The notes beneath the pieces were generated by a model. That model did not search any database. It saw only the letters and a program-made list of their open reading frames with translations, and was not told the DNA's origin. Source: a virus (lineage: Duplodnaviria > Caudoviricetes). From it: a stretch of DNA of 64,000 nt. The first letter of the stretch is position 1. Each line of letters opens with the position of its first letter. Position numbers and translations under genes: made by a program. This document shows, piece by piece, positions 30,295 to 60,871 of this stretch. The DNA lies in the IMG/VR virus record IMGVR_UViG_3300031857_000014. One strand, 5' to 3'.

Positions 30295-30327
30295 TATAAA
30301 TATCTTTCCTTTCGTTTGATATTTATA
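30295..30327. promoter_or_regulatory. Back-to-back divergent late promoter motifs
   Basis: TATAAATA on + at 30295-30302 (serves the minus gene) and TATTTATA at 30320-30327 (serves the plus gene), within a 55-bp gap. Confidence 0.6.
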
Positions 30328-40634: not shown

Positions 40635-40648
40635 ATCTATTTATAGAT

Positions 40649-47955: not shown

Positions 47956-49704
47956 TTATCTTAAAGTGTTCAAATCAAATGTTTGAAGACCTCTCACATC
48001 GATAGTTGCGAAGTAACGGTTGTTAACCATTTTCTTTGCGTATCTTGTCATGATACCTTTAATCGGTGTCATGTTGAAAGGATTATACATTGTTGGAGTC
48101 AACTGTAATGGTACGTATGGTGCGTAAATGTAACCAGCGTCTAACAATGACTTACCTTTGTGTCCAATCAAGATTTTTCCTGCTGGGAAGTAAGGGTCAC
48201 GATATACTTGGTAACGACCTGCTAATGTACCAACTTTCTCAATACCCATGTTGTACTGATCTTGCTCAGGAGCAGCGTTTGATACGTGGAAATATTCCAA
48301 ATCATCGAATACTGCAGAAACTTCTGAAGAAACAACGATCCAGTTAGCACCACCTCTCAAAGTAGTTTTGTGGATTTGAGCAGACAATTGGTTAATTTTG
48401 GTTAACAATGTTTGGTTCCAATCTTTTTGAGTGTAACCCTGAAGAGTAGCACCTGCATTACCACCATATTTCCATTCGTTGTAATCCCACTTCAATGACC
48501 ATGCTGCACCTTTTCTAAGGTCACGTAAAATTTCACGGTCAACCTCAGCAGCGATTTGCTCAGATAACAACGCTGTTAACTCAGCTTCTGCATCGATGTT
48601 GTGGAACGCACTAACGTCTTGTGCTAATTCAGGAGACCAGCTAGCTCTCAATTTTCTTTCAGTTACAGAAACTGTTACTGACTCAAGATCGAAAGAAACT
48701 TCACCGATTTCATCTTCAAATTCCAAAGTAGCATATCTACGATAAGTAAAGATAAAGTCAGTACCATCTAAAGCACCACCTGCTACTGTGTAATTAGAGA
48801 AACCTGCAGTTGACGAATAAGTTTGTAAATCAACTTGGATGAATATAGTACCATTCTCATCGCAAATATCTTGATAACCAAGACCATTAGCAGAATCAAA
48901 TGCTTTAACACCGTAATTAACAATTCCTTTACCATATTTCTGTGTAACGATATTGAATGGTAAATTTCCTGTTGATATACCTGAAATACTAACCGCGTTA
49001 GTCACAACAGATAATGAAGCCAAGAATTCTTCTGTATCCATTTCGTTACCGTCTGGACCAGCTAATTTACCTTGACCTGGTCTAGAGAAACCACTAAGTG
49101 CAACAACTACACTTGATAAAGATGTATTAATTGGATAAGTTACACCATAAGTAACAGCTCCGTTAGAGAAAGTAACAAGACTATTACCTGTTAAACTAAC
49201 TGTAGTGAAACCTCCTTTAGAGTAATCATACAATCCTGAAGTTGCGTCATCGTTTGACTCATAGAAACGATCATAAAGGTTAATACCTGTGTATCCAGTA
49301 GATGCACTTGTACCACCTCCACCACCTGGAATACCATATGGTTGATAGTGACCATTTCCGCCAGTTCTATCTTGAATTTTTGGTACGAAATAGAATAATT
49401 TACCGATTGGTAAGTTCATAGCTTGTACAGACACGATGTCGTTAGCTAATAATTTAGAGAACACACGTCTGATGATAGGAAATACCACAGTCTCAAATGA
49501 ACCTGAAGCATCAGATACTGCTGCTTCGTTTATCAAATAAGACGCTTGGTTTTCATACAACTGCGCGATGTTATCTTTCATGTGACCGTCAAGACCCTCA
49601 AGGAATCCGAGGTCATCCCATTTTCTGATGGTATCTTCTTTGATAACACGAAGGTGCTTAAGACCGATGTTACCAACCATACCTGATTCTAATAATGCTC
49701 CCAT
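47956..49704 (-). CDS. gp23: Major capsid protein (T4 gp23-like)
   Basis: PIIRRVF..L.ANDIVSVQAM..P.G..FY; RKLRASWSPELAQD; YAPYVPL; GIMTRY. Confidence 0.97.
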   Translation of the reverse strand: MGALLESGMVGNIGLKHLRVIKEDTIRKWDDLGFLEGLDGHMKDNIAQLYENQASYLINEAAVSDASGSFETVVFPIIRRVFSKLLANDIVSVQAMNLPIGKLFYFVPKIQDRTGGNGHYQPYGIPGGGGGTSASTGYTGINLYDRFYESNDDATSGLYDYSKGGFTTVSLTGNSLVTFSNGAVTYGVTYPINTSLSSVVVALSGFSRPGQGKLAGPDGNEMDTEEFLASLSVVTNAVSISGISTGNLPFNIVTQKYGKGIVNYGVKAFDSANGLGYQDICDENGTIFIQVDLQTYSSTAGFSNYTVAGGALDGTDFIFTYRRYATLEFEDEIGEVSFDLESVTVSVTERKLRASWSPELAQDVSAFHNIDAEAELTALLSEQIAAEVDREILRDLRKGAAWSLKWDYNEWKYGGNAGATLQGYTQKDWNQTLLTKINQLSAQIHKTTLRGGANWIVVSSEVSAVFDDLEYFHVSNAAPEQDQYNMGIEKVGTLAGRYQVYRDPYFPAGKILIGHKGKSLLDAGYIYAPYVPLQLTPTMYNPFNMTPIKGIMTRYAKKMVNNRYFATIDVRGLQTFDLNTLR

Positions 49705-49732: not shown

Positions 49733-50950
<1,218 letters not shown>

Positions 50951-51038
50951 TTTTCTTTATTTAGTTTTATTATTCTATAAATACTATGAATTTTATAAAA
51001 AATTCAGTTTTATTATATGTTTATCGGGAAAAAATTGA

Positions 51039-51725
51039 TTATTTTGATAAGAAGTTATCAAGTCGACCCATTAGACTTTTCATTTTGTCAGTATCGACCT
51101 TTGGTTCTTCTATAGACTCTTGATACTGTTCTCTCTCTGATGGGTCACTAAATACATATGCACCAGGAGTAGACGGAGACGACACTAAATCAAAACAGAC
51201 CAATTCAAAATCTTCTTGTACAACGTTTTGACCTTTTATATTTTTTAAAGAACCAACTCCTCTAGATGAAATACCTAAAGTCGCACCATTCATTATTAAC
51301 ATTGCTGCTTGGTCACCTTTAGTACTGACTATTCCCATTTTTTTCCAACCGGGAGAAGTAAACAATTTGATTTTACCCATTAACATTTTACCATCCCACC
51401 ATGTTTCTAAAATTGAGTGAGAAACTCTGTCTAAGTCAATAAGAGAAGATGATGGGTGATTTAATTCATTTAATGCCCCACCTTTTTTTATAATTGTTTG
51501 ATATTTTTCGTTTTCTCTTTTTAAAATGGTTTCAGGATAAATTCTACCATTTTTGTTTGGTGTGTCGTATTTCTGTAAAACAGCATAAAGGATAAGGTCT
51601 TTTGAAAAGTCCATATCCTTCATTTCTGAAATTATTCCTTTATTATCTTCTGCGGAAACGTATCCTGCATCGTATTCGATGAGGTAACCTTTTACACCAA
51701 TATCATTGGGACCTAATATCTTCAT
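51039..51725 (-). CDS. gp21: Prohead protease (T4 gp21-like)
   Basis: NKNGRIYP, GALNELNHP, LDRVSH, GISSRGVGS, FDLVSSPSTPGA. Confidence 0.95.
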   Translation of the reverse strand: MKILGPNDIGVKGYLIEYDAGYVSAEDNKGIISEMKDMDFSKDLILYAVLQKYDTPNKNGRIYPETILKRENEKYQTIIKKGGALNELNHPSSSLIDLDRVSHSILETWWDGKMLMGKIKLFTSPGWKKMGIVSTKGDQAAMLIMNGATLGISSRGVGSLKNIKGQNVVQEDFELVCFDLVSSPSTPGAYVFSDPSEREQYQESIEEPKVDTDKMKSLMGRLDNFLSK

Positions 51726-51761
51726 TTATAGCTATTAATACTATAAATACTTAGATATTTA

Positions 51762-52187
51762 CTAATTTTTACTTTTAGAGAAATTAAATAGATTTTTGTC
51801 AGATAAACCATTATCGATAATGGTTTCTGTAATATATTTTATAGTTGACTTTATTTCTTTTGATTTAACATCAAACTTTTTTTCTACGTATAAAGTAACC
51901 TCTAAATTCATAAAGGATTTTTTTTCTTTTTTAATTCCTTTTGTCCTTATGTCTAAATCAACTATAGATTGTGGTTTAAAATATTCTAATTTGAGATTAG
52001 AAATTATTTCTTTAATTAATCTTCTTGATTTCAAAATAGTAAAATCAAAATCTTCATTTTCGTTTTTTGGTTGAACCCAAGAATTAATTTTTAAATAAAT
52101 TGTTTTTAAATTTTTAGAATCTACTGTTCCATATCCAATTTTTACATCATTGTAAATTCCTAATGGAATAAACTTACCGGTTTTCAT
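51762..52187 (-). CDS. Hypothetical protein
   Basis: 141-aa ORF in the head module. Confidence 0.7.
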   Translation of the reverse strand: MKTGKFIPLGIYNDVKIGYGTVDSKNLKTIYLKINSWVQPKNENEDFDFTILKSRRLIKEIISNLKLEYFKPQSIVDLDIRTKGIKKEKKSFMNLEVTLYVEKKFDVKSKEIKSTIKYITETIIDNGLSDKNLFNFSKSKN

Positions 52188-52287
52188 TAATTTTTCATGT
52201 TATAATATTTTTATGGTGTTAATAAAATATAATATAATTTTTAGTAAAAAACAAATTTTTTTATATTTTTTTCAAATACTTATTTTT

Positions 52288-52479
52288 ATGATTATTATTG
52301 ATGTAACAAAAGAAAAAAATATTGAAACCGCGTTGAAAAACTATAAAAACAAGGTGAATAGAATTAAACAAATTCAAAAATTGAAAGAGAGAAAAGAATA
52401 CGTGAAACCCTCTGTAGTTAAAAGAGAAATTATATTAAAAGCTAAATTTAAAAATAAAATGAAAAATGGTCTTAATTAA
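52288..52479 (+). CDS. rpsU: Ribosomal protein bS21
   Basis: Likely start at ATG 52288: MIIIDVTKEKNIETALKNYKNKV...LKERKEYVKPSVVKR (bS21 signature ALKxxKxK...R..Y.KPS..R). Confidence 0.85.
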   Translation: MIIIDVTKEKNIETALKNYKNKVNRIKQIQKLKERKEYVKPSVVKREIILKAKFKNKMKNGLN

Positions 52480-53219
52480 AGACCATTTTTTAATTCTTTA
52501 AGTTTGTAATAATTGTATTTTGAAATTTCCATAGAATCCACTTCTTTTTTAACAGATTCTAATTTTGATATAACATCTGATTGTATGTATTTTGACTCAG
52601 ATAAGATACCATTGATTTTTTGATTGATATCTTCTTTTAATTCTTTTGTTTTTTCTTTTAAATCTTCGTCATTAAATGATAAAATGTCCTTTAATTCTTT
52701 TCTCTGATTCTCATTTAATGAATCATTATATAAAACATTGAAATTATTGACAAGTACTGCATTTAATAAACCTAAATTTGGTATTAATGTTTCCGATTCC
52801 TCAAGTTTTACAGATTCTTTTTTAGTTGTTAAAAACTTAATTAAATTATCCTTCGCTAATACTTTTTTATCTATGTTTAACAAACTATCATCCTCTGATA
52901 AAATATCTAAGTATTCATATACTTGATTGTTATCACAGTTATAATCTTGAATATGTTCGTAAAGTGTTTTGTTAAATTTATATAATTCTTTAGTCTTATC
53001 TTTTAATAGATTAATTATACTTTCAACGTATACTTTCGCAACATTTTTATCTTCAAAATATTTGTTTTCTATTTCTTCATAAAATAGATATAATTCTTTG
53101 AAACTTTTATTCTCTTTTATGATTTCCATAATAGATTTTACATCTGTCATGTTTTTTTCAGAATACGATTCAGATATTCTTGTCAGTAATTTTGATTTTA
53201 ATTTACCAAAACTGTTCAT
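52476..53219 (-). CDS. Hypothetical protein downstream of portal
   Basis: 247-aa helical ORF. Confidence 0.7.
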   Translation of the reverse strand: MNSFGKLKSKLLTRISESYSEKNMTDVKSIMEIIKENKSFKELYLFYEEIENKYFEDKNVAKVYVESIINLLKDKTKELYKFNKTLYEHIQDYNCDNNQVYEYLDILSEDDSLLNIDKKVLAKDNLIKFLTTKKESVKLEESETLIPNLGLLNAVLVNNFNVLYNDSLNENQRKELKDILSFNDEDLKEKTKELKEDINQKINGILSESKYIQSDVISKLESVKKEVDSMEISKYNYYKLKELKNGL

Positions 53220-53221
53220 GT

Positions 53222-55018
53222 TTAATCGTTTAATATGTCTTTTAATTTATTTTCTATTTCATAAATATTCTCTTGCGCCTTATTAAAATCAAATTCTTCA
53301 TTTTCATCTAACATTTCTGTTATTTTTAATTTTTTTGATTCACTTAAAGGAGCTTCACCACCACCTGTTGGAGGTGGTGGAGGAGGAGAACCACCACCCA
53401 ATTCACCACCCATACCACCGGGAGATTCACCTGGAGCACCCGCACTTGCTTCTCTTTCTTTTTCGGGTATACCGTACTTATTGTCTACATTATCAAATAC
53501 TCCTGAACGTTTAATAACATTTTGTGTGTTAGTTAACTCAAAACCAATAGCTCTTTCAAGTCTTTGTTGCTGTAAATCAAGAATAACTTCATTATCACTC
53601 ATACCAAGAATATTTTTCTTAGCCCATGTATGAGAAACAGGTAAAATACCTATTTGAGATTGGTCAGATGTTGCATCCTTATAAAGAGTTATCTTTTCTT
53701 TCCATTGTTCAATCTTTAATAATTCTGATTGAGAAGATGGGTTAGTTAAAGATAATTGAAAATTATTTAATTCATCTTCTAAACCTAATAAGTATAAATG
53801 AATTAACGCAATTTTATTTAATTCCTGAATTAATGATTTTTGAATTCTATTAATTGTTCTCGCAAAACGTATATCCATTAGTGCAAGATTCTTACCGTCA
53901 CCCACAGCATCTTCAAACCCTAAAAAAGCTTTAGGTATTCTCAATGCAGCTAATAATTTCTTTTGAATATATTCTATATCGGCGATTTCACCTAAGTTTT
54001 GAGCACCTGCTAATGTTTCAATAGGGTTAGTCGCAGCTGGATCACGAACAGGAATAAAATAATCTTGGTCTACCGCCATTTGATTATATCTCATATCAAT
54101 TTGTCCATTCTTAGGGTCAGCAATAGGTTGTCTTTTAAATTTATTCGCAACCCTTTGTACGTAAGCTTCAATATCCTTATCATCCATATTACCAACAAAG
54201 ACTTTAAACACACGTCTCTCCGGTGCTCTTGATGTTCTATAAATTAACATAGCGTCTTCGGCTAAAAGTAGTTGTTTCCAAATTCTTCTAACTTTATCTA
54301 ACATTGATGTACCATAAGGTAATTTTCTATCATCACCTAATAATCTAAAATGTCCAATTTCCCATGATTGAAATTCCATGTCTTTATTTTTCCATTGAAA
54401 TCTCAATTCTCTAGTTGGCATTTTCATTTCAGGATTTTGATTGGGTGTTTTTGATGAAACACCTTCCAATCTTTCTATTTCAATATTTGGTAACTGTTGA
54501 CAACCAATAATTCCTTTTTCGGGATTTATTTTGAGATAGATAAAATTGTCACCATATTTACATAATCCTCTAGCCCACATTTGTAAATTTGTGTTTATGT
54601 CTAATCTGTTACTAAATAAATCTTCTAAAATATTTTTAACTCTGGTTGATTCTGAATATATCGTTAATATTTCACCTTTTTCTGACATTGTTGTTGATTC
54701 TTCAGCGTAAATGTCTAAAGCAGCAGATATCTCCGGAGTAAACTCCATAGATTCATAATCATAGTATGCTGCTAATCTATTTGGTTCATAATATACTGAT
54801 TGATTATATAGTGATTGATCTAATTTAGCCCATTTATCTGCGATATATGTACTTTGTTGTGCTTGAAGTAATGCGTTTTCGTATTCTTCTTTACTATCCG
54901 TTTTCAGTAACTCATCCTTACTAAATGTAAATGATTGTTTTTCTTCAGGTTTTGATTGACCCGGAAACCCAAACATCTTAGTGAGTTTCTGAAATACCGT
55001 TAAATTTTGATTATCCAT
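53222..55018 (-). CDS. gp20: Portal protein (T4 gp20-like)
   Basis: YESME..PEISAALDIYAEE, EDAMLIYRTSRAPERRVF, QDYFIP, LAALRIPKAFL. Confidence 0.95.
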   Translation of the reverse strand: MDNQNLTVFQKLTKMFGFPGQSKPEEKQSFTFSKDELLKTDSKEEYENALLQAQQSTYIADKWAKLDQSLYNQSVYYEPNRLAAYYDYESMEFTPEISAALDIYAEESTTMSEKGEILTIYSESTRVKNILEDLFSNRLDINTNLQMWARGLCKYGDNFIYLKINPEKGIIGCQQLPNIEIERLEGVSSKTPNQNPEMKMPTRELRFQWKNKDMEFQSWEIGHFRLLGDDRKLPYGTSMLDKVRRIWKQLLLAEDAMLIYRTSRAPERRVFKVFVGNMDDKDIEAYVQRVANKFKRQPIADPKNGQIDMRYNQMAVDQDYFIPVRDPAATNPIETLAGAQNLGEIADIEYIQKKLLAALRIPKAFLGFEDAVGDGKNLALMDIRFARTINRIQKSLIQELNKIALIHLYLLGLEDELNNFQLSLTNPSSQSELLKIEQWKEKITLYKDATSDQSQIGILPVSHTWAKKNILGMSDNEVILDLQQQRLERAIGFELTNTQNVIKRSGVFDNVDNKYGIPEKEREASAGAPGESPGGMGGELGGGSPPPPPPTGGGEAPLSESKKLKITEMLDENEEFDFNKAQENIYEIENKLKDILND

Positions 55019-55069: not shown

Positions 55070-56848
55070 TTATTTCTTAGTACCAAATAACCACGAATAT
55101 TCTTGATATGCGTCTTTATTTGATGATATATTATTCATATTAGAATTTAATCCTGGATTATCCATTTGAGTTAAACCAACCGGATCAAAAGACGTTCCGT
55201 ATGAATAAAATGATTTATTAGGTTCATATGTTCTTTCACTTACTGTCCAAGACTCTAACATGGCTTTATTTGCCGATTCATTTCTTTGAAGTTGGTTAAA
55301 ACATATATCACCAGCATATAACGCCATAGATATACTCATAATTGCATCGTCATGAGCACCTTTCATGTGGTCAGGTCTACCATTAATATAAACAAACGTG
55401 TTTAATTCATTTAATAATCTATTCGATCTAATTAAGAATCCTTTTCTAACTTGTTCTTCAAATGCAGCAACAATTTGAGTTCTTTTGTTATTAAAATTTA
55501 TACCGGGAATTTTATCCATTACTTTTCTATTATATTCCCAAATATTTTGTGTATTAATACCTTCAATATATAAATTTTTATAATTCATTTCTTGAAGTTT
55601 TCTTGATGTAGCAATTCCCATACCACCAGTTATATCTGTAACAATAAATGAATTACCATAAAGAATACCCCATTTATATGCGATTGACGCCAAATCATCT
55701 GGAGGAATTTTTCCTATATATTCTAAAACTTGTTCTCTATCATCAAAATCAATTATATTGATTGCTGAAAAATCTTCACTATCACCTCTACTCACATCAA
55801 CACCCATAATATATCGGTGACCAACAATAGGTTCTTTCCATTGCCAAAGAGTACCTTGCATATACTTTTCAATCGGTTGTCTAACCATATTCTTTGCAAT
55901 ATTCTCTTGTATTTCACCTGGAATAACACCATCACCTGAACCTAAAAAGTCACATTCCAATTCCTGAGCAATCTTACGTCTATCATATTTGAATTTTTTA
56001 GACATAGATTCAAACCAAGAAGAAAAAGGTTTGTATCCTTGTTCTTCATACTCACGATATTTTTCAATATCAAAATCGTACATAACAACTTCATCATCAT
56101 TATATTGTTCTCTATTCAACATGTAATGACATATGTCAGCACATTTAATCCACCTTAAATCCTTAGTATATCTTGGGTCTTTAAACCATCTTAAATCAGT
56201 AATATGAAAATCATTTATACCACGTAGAGCCTGATCATAAACACCATAATAAATTGGGTCATATCCATTTGGTGTTGAAATAAGAATAATCTTACCACCG
56301 GTAGACAATGACGCCATAGACGCCGCCCAAAAATCTTCTCCTGCTTCAATATAAGCAGCCTCATCAAATACAAGTATTGTTGGAGTATAACCACGTAACG
56401 CATCCGCAGATGTTGCTACCGCTTTTACTTCACAACCATTGTTTAATCTAAATCTACTTTCTGAATTTTTATCCGGGTGAAAACCAACATTAATCCATTC
56501 AGGCCATTGGTCTAAGAAATGTCTAACCTTATTGGCCATTTCAATTGCGGTATCTCTCTTGTTTGCAATAATCAAAACCCTTTCAGGATTTTCGGGTTTT
56601 GCTGTCTGAAGTTTCTTTGATATCCATGCAGCGGTAACTGTTGACACACCCGCCTGTCTATATTTCCTTGTTATATTCTCATTATAAGTTTCGTAATCTT
56701 TAATTAACTGAACTTGGTCAGGGAATAATTCTAAAGGAACAAATTTCTTTTGTGTATTATCATAAGTTGTTAGATATGTTTTGAGAGCATATGGAGCATC
56801 TTTGATAATACGAGCATATTCTTTTAACTGCTCAATTTTACTATTCAT
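55070..56848 (-). CDS. terL: Terminase large subunit (T4 gp17-like)
   Basis: Likely start at ATG 56848 (MNSKIEQL). RKYRQAGVST, LVFDEAAYI, ISTPNG, QELECDFLGS, GVDVSRG, HDDAIMS. Confidence 0.95.
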   Translation of the reverse strand: MNSKIEQLKEYARIIKDAPYALKTYLTTYDNTQKKFVPLELFPDQVQLIKDYETYNENITRKYRQAGVSTVTAAWISKKLQTAKPENPERVLIIANKRDTAIEMANKVRHFLDQWPEWINVGFHPDKNSESRFRLNNGCEVKAVATSADALRGYTPTILVFDEAAYIEAGEDFWAASMASLSTGGKIILISTPNGYDPIYYGVYDQALRGINDFHITDLRWFKDPRYTKDLRWIKCADICHYMLNREQYNDDEVVMYDFDIEKYREYEEQGYKPFSSWFESMSKKFKYDRRKIAQELECDFLGSGDGVIPGEIQENIAKNMVRQPIEKYMQGTLWQWKEPIVGHRYIMGVDVSRGDSEDFSAINIIDFDDREQVLEYIGKIPPDDLASIAYKWGILYGNSFIVTDITGGMGIATSRKLQEMNYKNLYIEGINTQNIWEYNRKVMDKIPGINFNNKRTQIVAAFEEQVRKGFLIRSNRLLNELNTFVYINGRPDHMKGAHDDAIMSISMALYAGDICFNQLQRNESANKAMLESWTVSERTYEPNKSFYSYGTSFDPVGLTQMDNPGLNSNMNNISSNKDAYQEYSWLFGTKK

Positions 56849-56863
56849 ACATATAAATACAAA

Positions 56864-56886
56864 AAAAGGTGGTAAAACCACCTTTT
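56864..56886 (-). terminator. Terminator upstream of terL late promoter
   Basis: AAAAGGTGGT-N3-ACCACCTTTT, immediately followed on the minus strand by TATTTATA (56852-56859). Confidence 0.75.
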
Positions 56887-56890
56887 CGTA

Positions 56891-58210
56891 TTAATTATCA
56901 CTTGGCATGTCTATACCTAAACCACCAAGAAAATCTCGTAAATCATCATCGTCAGTATCATCCGTGATATCGTCTAAATCACTTTCGAACTGTTGAACCG
57001 CTTGTTCAAATTCTTCGTCTTTTAACATTTTTTCAATACCATCCATTAACTCATTCATAAGTCTTTTACCTTTATCAGTACCACCTATGACCTCTTTAGC
57101 AAATACTAAGAAATTTCTTGCTGGTAGTTTGAATATTTCCGCAATTAAATAATTCTGTAATTCGTATTTATCCGTATCAGTTAAAATTTCTTCAGGGAAT
57201 TGTTGTCTAATTCTGTCCCAAATAGCTGGACCTAATCTTAAATCCCACATTTCTTTTTCTAATGTATCTTCAGACGCTTGTACCGCACTAAATGTTTCTT
57301 CATCACTTGGGTCACCATGATGCGACAATAATTCTAACCAACCTTTAATTAATTCATGAACTAATACAGGGAAGTTTATTGCTCTCACAGTAATCTTTGG
57401 TGGATCAGAATTTCTATCAACGGACTCTTTACCACCAACCATAGGTTCTCCACCTCCACCTCCCATCATCATCTGCATTTGGTCATCACCTAATTGCCAA
57501 TATAGAGTATCATTAATTGACATTAACACACCATATTGATTAATTAAATTTTCAGAACCGGTAATTTCTCTTATTTTATCAGCAACATAATGGTACATGT
57601 AATGACCCCTTTTTGATGCTCCTTGAATTATATTGTTTATTAATCTTCTTTTAGCCTTTTCTAAATCTAAATTTTGTAAATCGTTTGCTAAATCTTCTTC
57701 AACTTCTAAATTAACTTCAGGAGCGTTTTGTTGTCCTTGATTTTCTCTATTAAAATCACTAGCATCTATTTCTCCTAAACCAACAATTTTTGCATCAAAT
57801 TCAACAGCACCTTCAGGTATTGAAAATTCTTTCATAACTAATTCAATACCTAATTTTTCTAATGCGTCTCTGTGTGCTCTTTCAGTTTGAACAATTTGAT
57901 TATGAGCACCCATCATCATTTGAGTCAATGGACCTAAATCACCCATAGTTCTCAAAGGAGTATTAACACCAGTATATTGTCTAACTTTTTGAATTACTTG
58001 TTTATATCTTTCAGACGCTAGCAACTCCTGAAAGTTTTTGTTTGGTTCGTCACCTGTTTTAGGTAACGGTACCTTTTTTAAAGGAGTATCACCGGCAGCC
58101 AATTTTGCTTGGATGTCGGGACTTGGTCTATCTTCCGTATCAAAGTCCATTGCCATTTCTTCTATGTTTTCTTTGATGAAAGATAACAAATTTTTTTTAC
58201 TTATTTCCAT
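56891..58210 (-). CDS. Hypothetical protein
   Basis: 439-aa ORF in the head module. Confidence 0.75.
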   Translation of the reverse strand: MEISKKNLLSFIKENIEEMAMDFDTEDRPSPDIQAKLAAGDTPLKKVPLPKTGDEPNKNFQELLASERYKQVIQKVRQYTGVNTPLRTMGDLGPLTQMMMGAHNQIVQTERAHRDALEKLGIELVMKEFSIPEGAVEFDAKIVGLGEIDASDFNRENQGQQNAPEVNLEVEEDLANDLQNLDLEKAKRRLINNIIQGASKRGHYMYHYVADKIREITGSENLINQYGVLMSINDTLYWQLGDDQMQMMMGGGGGEPMVGGKESVDRNSDPPKITVRAINFPVLVHELIKGWLELLSHHGDPSDEETFSAVQASEDTLEKEMWDLRLGPAIWDRIRQQFPEEILTDTDKYELQNYLIAEIFKLPARNFLVFAKEVIGGTDKGKRLMNELMDGIEKMLKDEEFEQAVQQFESDLDDITDDTDDDDLRDFLGGLGIDMPSDN

Positions 58211-60801: not shown

Positions 60802-60871
60802 TTTTTAATAAAATTAAATTGGCTTATTCTTAACCTATAAATACAATGATAATTCAAAAAATTAACGTTAA

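Follow-up and report, generated by a model that had tools for sequence, protein, structure and literature searches.

A gene in the head module of a large freshwater phage encodes what our sequence comparisons confirmed to be a real, intact phage copy of a Bacteroidota-type ribosomal protein bS21. The explanation we favor, with a probability of about 0.6, is that this protein would occupy the host 30S subunit, hide the anti-Shine-Dalgarno (anti-SD) sequence, and sustain the late translation of phage mRNAs that lack a Shine-Dalgarno (SD) sequence. Among ribosomal proteins, bS21 is the one that phages carry most often, and in Bacteroidota it governs whether ribosomes can use SD sequences at all. 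The window, as used here, is the whole 64,000-nt stretch that was analyzed, taken from IMG/VR record IMGVR_UViG_3300031857_000014 (141,857 bp; completeness estimate, 43%); its features around bS21 are collected in Table 1.

Table 1. Features of the bS21 locus and the surrounding head module (window coordinates).
Feature	Coordinates	Strand	Remarks
Major capsid protein, gp23 type	47956..49704	-	PF07068, E 8e-73
Acidic scaffold-like protein, 405 aa	49733..50950	-	Scaffold position; matches no family
Prohead core protease, T4 gp21 type	51039..51725	-	PF03420, E 1.6e-23; TATTTATA ahead at 51742-51749
orf141, divergent neighbor of bS21	51762..52187	-	Position of T4 prohead-core genes
Divergent intergenic region orf141/bS21	52188..52287	.	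Conserved linear blocks, without SD
bS21 (rpsU-like) CDS	52288..52479	+	63 aa plus TAA stop
Palindromic hairpin with A-run and T-run	52460..52492	both	Two-way intrinsic terminator (predicted)
orf247, convergent neighbor of bS21	52476..53219	-	Helical; no family match
Portal protein, T4 gp20 type	53222..55018	-	PF07230, E 6e-78
Large terminase TerL	55070..56881	-	PHROG 2, E 1.3e-35

Identity and conservation of the phage bS21

The product begins with MIIIDVTKEK and ends with KAKFKNKMKNGLN, the latter exactly as quoted in a first-pass annotation made from the sequence alone, and it is small and strongly basic (net charge, +13). Its assignment to bS21 in that annotation was upheld by a match to the Pfam family Ribosomal_S21 (PF01165; 35.2 bits, E 9.7e-9, above the cut-off of 27), by a further match to PHROG 21469 ("ribosomal protein S21"), and by alignment with the solved bS21 of Flavobacterium johnsoniae. 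The score against the NCBIfam equivalog TIGR00030 lay narrowly under its cut-off (27.9 vs 28.95). A profile of the phage family aligned with the F. johnsoniae protein (7JIL_z) over residues 1-62 free of gaps (68 bits, E 5e-18) and reached 66 bits with 9i5v, a second solved bS21, against 37 bits or less for the remaining solved bS21 structures, a distribution that bears out a protein of the Bacteroidota type. The KPS motif (K40-P41-S42) is invariant or nearly so across the alignment of the phage bS21 family. The MIIID-type start is likewise conserved across relatives (38 distinct upstream regions), and the alignment identifies the MIIID methionine as the true start. A longer form of 88 aa, starting at the ATG at 52213, was rejected; its frame is open into bS21 in just 5 of 38 distinct relatives.

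A word-indexed search returned a family of 63-aa proteins with 60-92% identity to the phage bS21, the closest being P0002 (92%) and P0003 (85%), and the relatives fetched from IMG/VR were 59-70% identical. Scanning IMG/VR revealed at least 439 loci encoding bS21 relatives. Gene order and the opposite strand of bS21, between homologues of orf141 and orf247, were the same in 80/80 loci of the synteny set, which consists of loci fetched with the bS21 profile. Among related loci, 156 of 160 carry the gene, and the remaining 4 are cut by a contig end. Pairwise dN/dS values of approximately 0.12-0.15 (684 pairs) indicate that bS21 is under purifying selection and is not a chance ORF. These data bear directly on the view that the gene is a passenger or remnant, either a captured host gene without a phage role or an ORF that arose by chance in AT-rich DNA. 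Although chance ORFs are common in DNA of ~30% GC and this ORF is short, its presence in nearly all related loci over many metagenomes, the low dN/dS, the fixed position, a terminator of its own, and a Pfam score above the gathering threshold leave this view with hardly any probability, and the conservation data effectively refute it.

Searches of cultivated and deposited phage records at the DNA level gave nothing useful, and a protein search of a phage database returned only matches of 41-44% identity, from huge uncultured phages and one fecal bacteriophage contig. The best cellular bS21 proteins in 301 Bacteroidota genomes were 40-48% identical to the phage protein, and those of the Flavobacterium type showed ~35-45% identity. 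A single-protein scan of genome contigs yielded only two loci, in metagenome-assembled genomes (MAGs) titled Saprospirales and Flavobacterium. The Saprospirales MAG has two bS21 genes, one of which (L082/L086, on the 26.8-kb contig CALAZP010000224.1) is phage-like, with a MIIIDVTKEK start and without an SD; this gene may come from a phage contig binned with the MAG in error, or be a second copy of phage origin.

Phage clade and genomic setting

Chen et al. 2022 (ISME Commun 2:31, PMC9723584) described five clades (a-e) of freshwater phages with predicted Bacteroidetes hosts, genomes of 293-331 kb, and a GC content of 31-34%. The locus belongs to this clade of ~300-kb freshwater Bacteroidota T4-like myophages, with which it shares a reverse-strand bS21 flanked by two hypothetical genes within the TerL-portal-protease-capsid block, a genome of ~300 kb with GC near 30%, a freshwater habitat, a Bacteroidota-like protein, an aromatic residue 54, and a conserved C-terminus. 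The remark in the first-pass annotation that the feature is not novel as a class was correct, as that paper describes exactly the same clade and arrangement. The class of bS21 genes has been known since 2022; the terminator, the SD contrast, and the tail variant described below are absent from PMC9723584, in whose text the words promoter, terminator, and hairpin do not occur.

Contigs of relatives extend up to about 333-334 kb, and GC in the window ranges from 27 to 34% (~30% overall). Metagenomes of the lake-water, riverine, and freshwater types, drawn from several studies, contained the sequence; two of the runs, one lake-water and one freshwater, had zero-difference contig pieces. Together with a record of 141.9 kb at 43% completeness, these observations agree with the large freshwater phage proposed from the sequence. 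None of the sequencing runs recorded as RNA clearly contained the phage sequence; a possible RNA run (X20), in which 6% of words were present, was judged to be probably DNA. Families of type IX secretion system (T9SS) sorting domains, searched as a host marker, gave no match, and control families were equally silent. The SD-less, A/T-rich leaders of the window genes fit a Bacteroidota host.

All neighbors of bS21 lie on the minus strand (Table 1), so the description "antisense within the head module" holds in the sense of opposite orientation. Neither orf247 nor orf141 matched a Pfam or PHROG family. orf247 adjoins bS21 in every related locus extending that far and probably corresponds to the gene that Chen et al. 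named "bS21_CN", and the position and strand of orf141 are constant in all loci reaching it. This setting lends some weight to a possibility raised by Chen et al., namely that bS21 is virion cargo, made with the prohead core, packed, and injected for the next infection. The gene lies between those for the portal and the prohead protease, at the site of T4 core-protein genes; its product is small and very basic; and it has a terminator and a C-terminal KNGL in common with its head-module neighbor orf247. However, it stands on the opposite strand with a regulatory region of its own, and by inspection its N-terminus has no (L/I)xE-type capsid-targeting/cleavage motif. Its rRNA-binding features (KPS, aromatic 54) are also under purifying selection, although this is compatible with both models. 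We consider packaging into the virion very unlikely.

Elsewhere in the module, long Glu/Asp runs, one of them made up of 12 Glu residues, give the protein in the scaffold position an extremely acidic character, and contigs from related populations vary in length in this gene (joints and inserts near 50226-50810). Another two-way terminator-like hairpin lies at 56863-56887, between TerL and the upstream gene ending at 56891. Because the GTG annotated as the TerL start (56879-56881) falls within this hairpin, the true start may be further downstream. No tRNA genes were found in the window.

A predicted two-way terminator in the last codons of bS21 and orf247

The ends of bS21 and orf247 overlap by 4 nt (TTAA, 52476-52479) within a perfect palindrome, AAAAATGGTCTT-loop-AAGACCATTTTT, which contains the last codons and the stops of both genes. 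A terminator scan called this element on both strands, with minimum free energies of the RNA of -15.1 and -13.6 kcal/mol for the two strands (z of -5.2 and -5.0 vs shuffles). Pairing held for 99% of cells across 26 distinct sequences, and three pairs showed compensatory double changes. Since both arms of the palindrome are coding, bS21 and orf247 both end in KNGL(x): bS21 ends with KNGLN and orf247 with ELKNGL, and the ending occurs on both proteins in nearly all 38 distinct loci. KNGL stands immediately before the last residue in 69 of 75 unique bS21 forms. Cellular bS21 of the Flavobacterium type ends with K-D-G/S-L-E-S, which suggests that the KNGL ending is probably ancestral to bS21 and that the C-terminus of orf247 was probably shaped to mirror it. 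In contigs of related populations (lake and river runs), the terminator loop has one base fewer, at 52478; the loop is 4 nt long in most relatives vs 5 nt in the window copy.

Chen et al. took the conserved C-terminus of bS21 to reflect functional importance on the ribosome (PMC9723584). Whereas that paper credits the C-terminus to function alone, here it is also a terminator arm. The terminator represents a second constraint, at the nucleic acid level, that could explain part of the C-terminal conservation, and such conservation alone is therefore no argument for a ribosomal role. Sharing of a two-way terminator would also explain the apparent co-transcription of bS21 and "bS21_CN" in unstranded RNA reads.

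C-terminal tail and position 54

The bS21 of F. johnsoniae (7JIL chain z; PMC7797042, PMC9976891) resembles the phage protein in its length, its KPSV-KR core, its aromatic residue 54, and its K-x-G/S-L ending; it differs in having Tyr54 where the phage has Phe and in a tail far less basic than that of the phage. The first-pass annotation had called the phage tail short and basic, and only the second adjective stood. Compared by net charge, residues 51-63 carry +5, the highest value among 39 unique relatives, with the other 38 ranging from +1 to +3; the protein as a whole, however, has 63 aa vs 64 in F. johnsoniae, and its tail is not short. A less basic C-terminal domain is a signature of Bacteroidota bS21 (Jha et al. 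2021, PMC7797042). The phage tail is far more basic than host tails, and its binding geometry could therefore differ.

Tyr54 of F. johnsoniae bS21, which stacks on A1534, contributes to concealing the anti-SD (PMC7797042); when it is changed (Y54A) or the C-terminal region is lost, ribosomes shift from SD-less toward strong-SD mRNA (PMC7797042; PMC9976891). When this anti-SD-contacting residue was compared with host bS21, as the first-pass annotation had proposed, its aromatic character proved to be kept, but not the tyrosine itself. Only two of 75 unique forms, the window copy among them, have Phe at position 54, and the 67 unique forms of 63 aa have Tyr (65) or His (2) there. Chen et al. likewise reported an aromatic residue at the position of F. 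johnsoniae Tyr54, "in one case Phe54" (PMC9723584). What sets the window copy apart from the clade as published is this rare Phe54 together with a tail more basic than those of the other 38 variants compared. F and Y were counted as similar by Jha et al. (PMC7797042), and, judged from the alignment, Phe54 for Tyr54 is a conservative change. One cellular Bacteroidota bS21 (L095) also has Phe54 (KARFRDTF), so this residue is not restricted to phages.

Upstream region and Shine-Dalgarno use

Alignment of 38 distinct upstream regions revealed several conserved blocks. The best-conserved element of this intergenic region, TTATGGTG (52211-52218), was shared by 37 of the 38 distinct relatives; it lies ~75 nt ahead of bS21 and, on the other strand, ~25 nt upstream of orf141, and it begins a mini-ORF of variable length (2-25 codons). 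Elsewhere in the record, TTATGGTG had a single other match, which is coding, and none that is intergenic; CACCATAAAA/TTATGGTG was rejected as a repeated promoter motif, as no intergenic repeats were found. The 5' region showed no consensus RNA fold and no Rfam family above chance. Closer to the gene, one block reads TATATTTT at 52262-52269 (TATATTTG in many relatives) and another reads TACTTATT at 52277-52284; 31 of 38 relatives have TA[TC]TTAT no more than 30 nt before the bS21 ATG. The window copy has a degenerate form of the late-type motif (TACTTATT) and an imperfect host-type -7 box (TATATTTT), which makes the timing of bS21 expression uncertain. Of the 38 relatives, 20 have a host-type TAnnTTTG box farther from the gene. 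This motif showed no enrichment in the window, so a host-type promoter is suggested only by the conserved position in those 20.

The motif TATTTAT[AT] occurs 40 times in the window, and 17 of these occurrences are followed within 60 nt by a start codon on the same strand, including those of the protease and scaffold genes. It probably represents, together with TATTTATA, a late-promoter element of the phage clade. The form (G)TATTTATA(G) was seen in sense orientation 3-51 nt upstream of many structural-gene starts, with late-motif sites at 50976-50983(-), 51742-51749(-), 30295-30302(-), 30320-30327(+), 40638-40645(+), and 60836-60843(-); TATTTATA is the reverse complement of the T4 late box TATAAATA. 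At some genes, the gap from motif to ATG is 3-5 nt, and leaderless mRNAs are possible there.

No SD was found before the phage bS21 or its 38 distinct relatives, and none of the 53 window genes has GGAG, GAGG, or AGGA at -20 to -4; their leaders are A/T-rich. An extended SD (e.g., GAGAGGAGGTGTC or AAAGGAGGTAT) precedes rpsU in 8 of 11 distinct cellular Bacteroidota loci, a set from which the phage-like L082/L086 was left out, and all 11 have a TAnnTTTG-type or TTTG-ending box ~20-30 nt upstream. The extended SD lies ~6-8 nt before the ATG in L083/L085, L087, L088, L091-L094, and L096, and the rpsU genes without it are L084, L089, L090, and L095. In Bacteroidota, the rpsU SD lets bS21-free ribosomes drive rpsU translation, resulting in autoregulation (McNutt et al. 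2023, PMC9976891). The strong extended SD that marks this autoregulatory unit is missing from the phage gene, which, unlike F. johnsoniae rpsU, would lie outside the host autoregulation. Across the 141.9-kb record (~43% of the genome), extended-SD-type patterns showed no excess over the control and none was non-coding; a candidate site (G000:C1:140483) was rejected because it lies in a coding sequence, and the match at 113931 is coding too.

Proposed role of the phage bS21

Biochemical work on the host protein provides the frame for our favored explanation. bS21 binds late and can dissociate, and ribosomes without bS21 or its C-terminal region perform worse on SD-less mRNAs and better on rpsU mRNA (PMC9976891). 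The phage gene would form its own transcription unit, with a plus-strand promoter region and the two-way terminator that it has in common with orf247. Its product would bind the host 30S at the bS21 site, either filling vacancies or swapping with loosely bound host bS21, and the aromatic residue 54 would keep the 3' tail of the 16S rRNA, with the anti-SD, tucked away. Ribosomes would thereby stay "replete" and initiate best on SD-less mRNAs, which are those of the phage's own genes. Because the phage gene lacks an extended SD, synthesis of its product may escape the host bS21 feedback loop, and ribosomes filled with phage bS21 would keep host rpsU translation low. In its least supported step, the explanation adds a possible preference for phage mRNAs conferred by the divergent N-terminal helix. 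Since no gene in the window is led by an SD, phage bS21 is unlikely to serve in "unlocking" the anti-SD. Viral bS21 is also known from another T4-like phage, Pelagibacter phage HTVC008M (Mizuno et al. 2019, PMC6375957), whose protein can enter Escherichia coli ribosomes according to the discussion by McNutt et al. (PMC9976891); its host phylum and bS21 lineage are different.

The model of Chen et al. 2022 assigns a larger part to the helix: phage bS21 would replace that of the host, and its N-terminal helix would select phage late mRNAs. The first helix does differ consistently between phage (YKxKVQKxKQIQ) and host (YKRKFDKTGTVRQ) proteins, a divergence that Chen et al. likewise reported, and bS21 is transcribed together with structural genes, consistent with late co-expression (PMC9723584). 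However, we found no feature specific to phage mRNAs on which such selection could act; leaders in the window are as A/T-rich and SD-less as the host mRNAs in the cited papers, and no conserved RNA structure or motif of late leaders was tied to bS21. We therefore regard selective hijacking as a rather doubtful alternative.

Another reading places the host feedback at the center. SD-less phage bS21 mRNA would be freely translated by replete ribosomes; with the anti-SD hidden, the bS21-free ribosomes needed by host rpsU mRNA would be removed; and host bS21 synthesis would shut itself off, with more and more of the ribosome pool passing into the phage form. Independently of this, the identical KNGL endings, imposed by the palindromic terminator, might couple bS21 and orf247 or their expression. 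We put forward this exploitation of the rpsU feedback, together with the separate coupling, as a tentative and on balance improbable proposal.

Implications

The locus adds no new class of phage gene, and its value lies in three testable points that it brings to the published model. First, the phage gene would stand outside the SD-based feedback loop by which the host controls its own bS21. Second, a phage whose genes all appear to be SD-less favors a role in keeping ribosomes replete over one in unlocking the anti-SD. Third, the C-terminus that has been read as functional would also be constrained by the two-way terminator that overlaps it.
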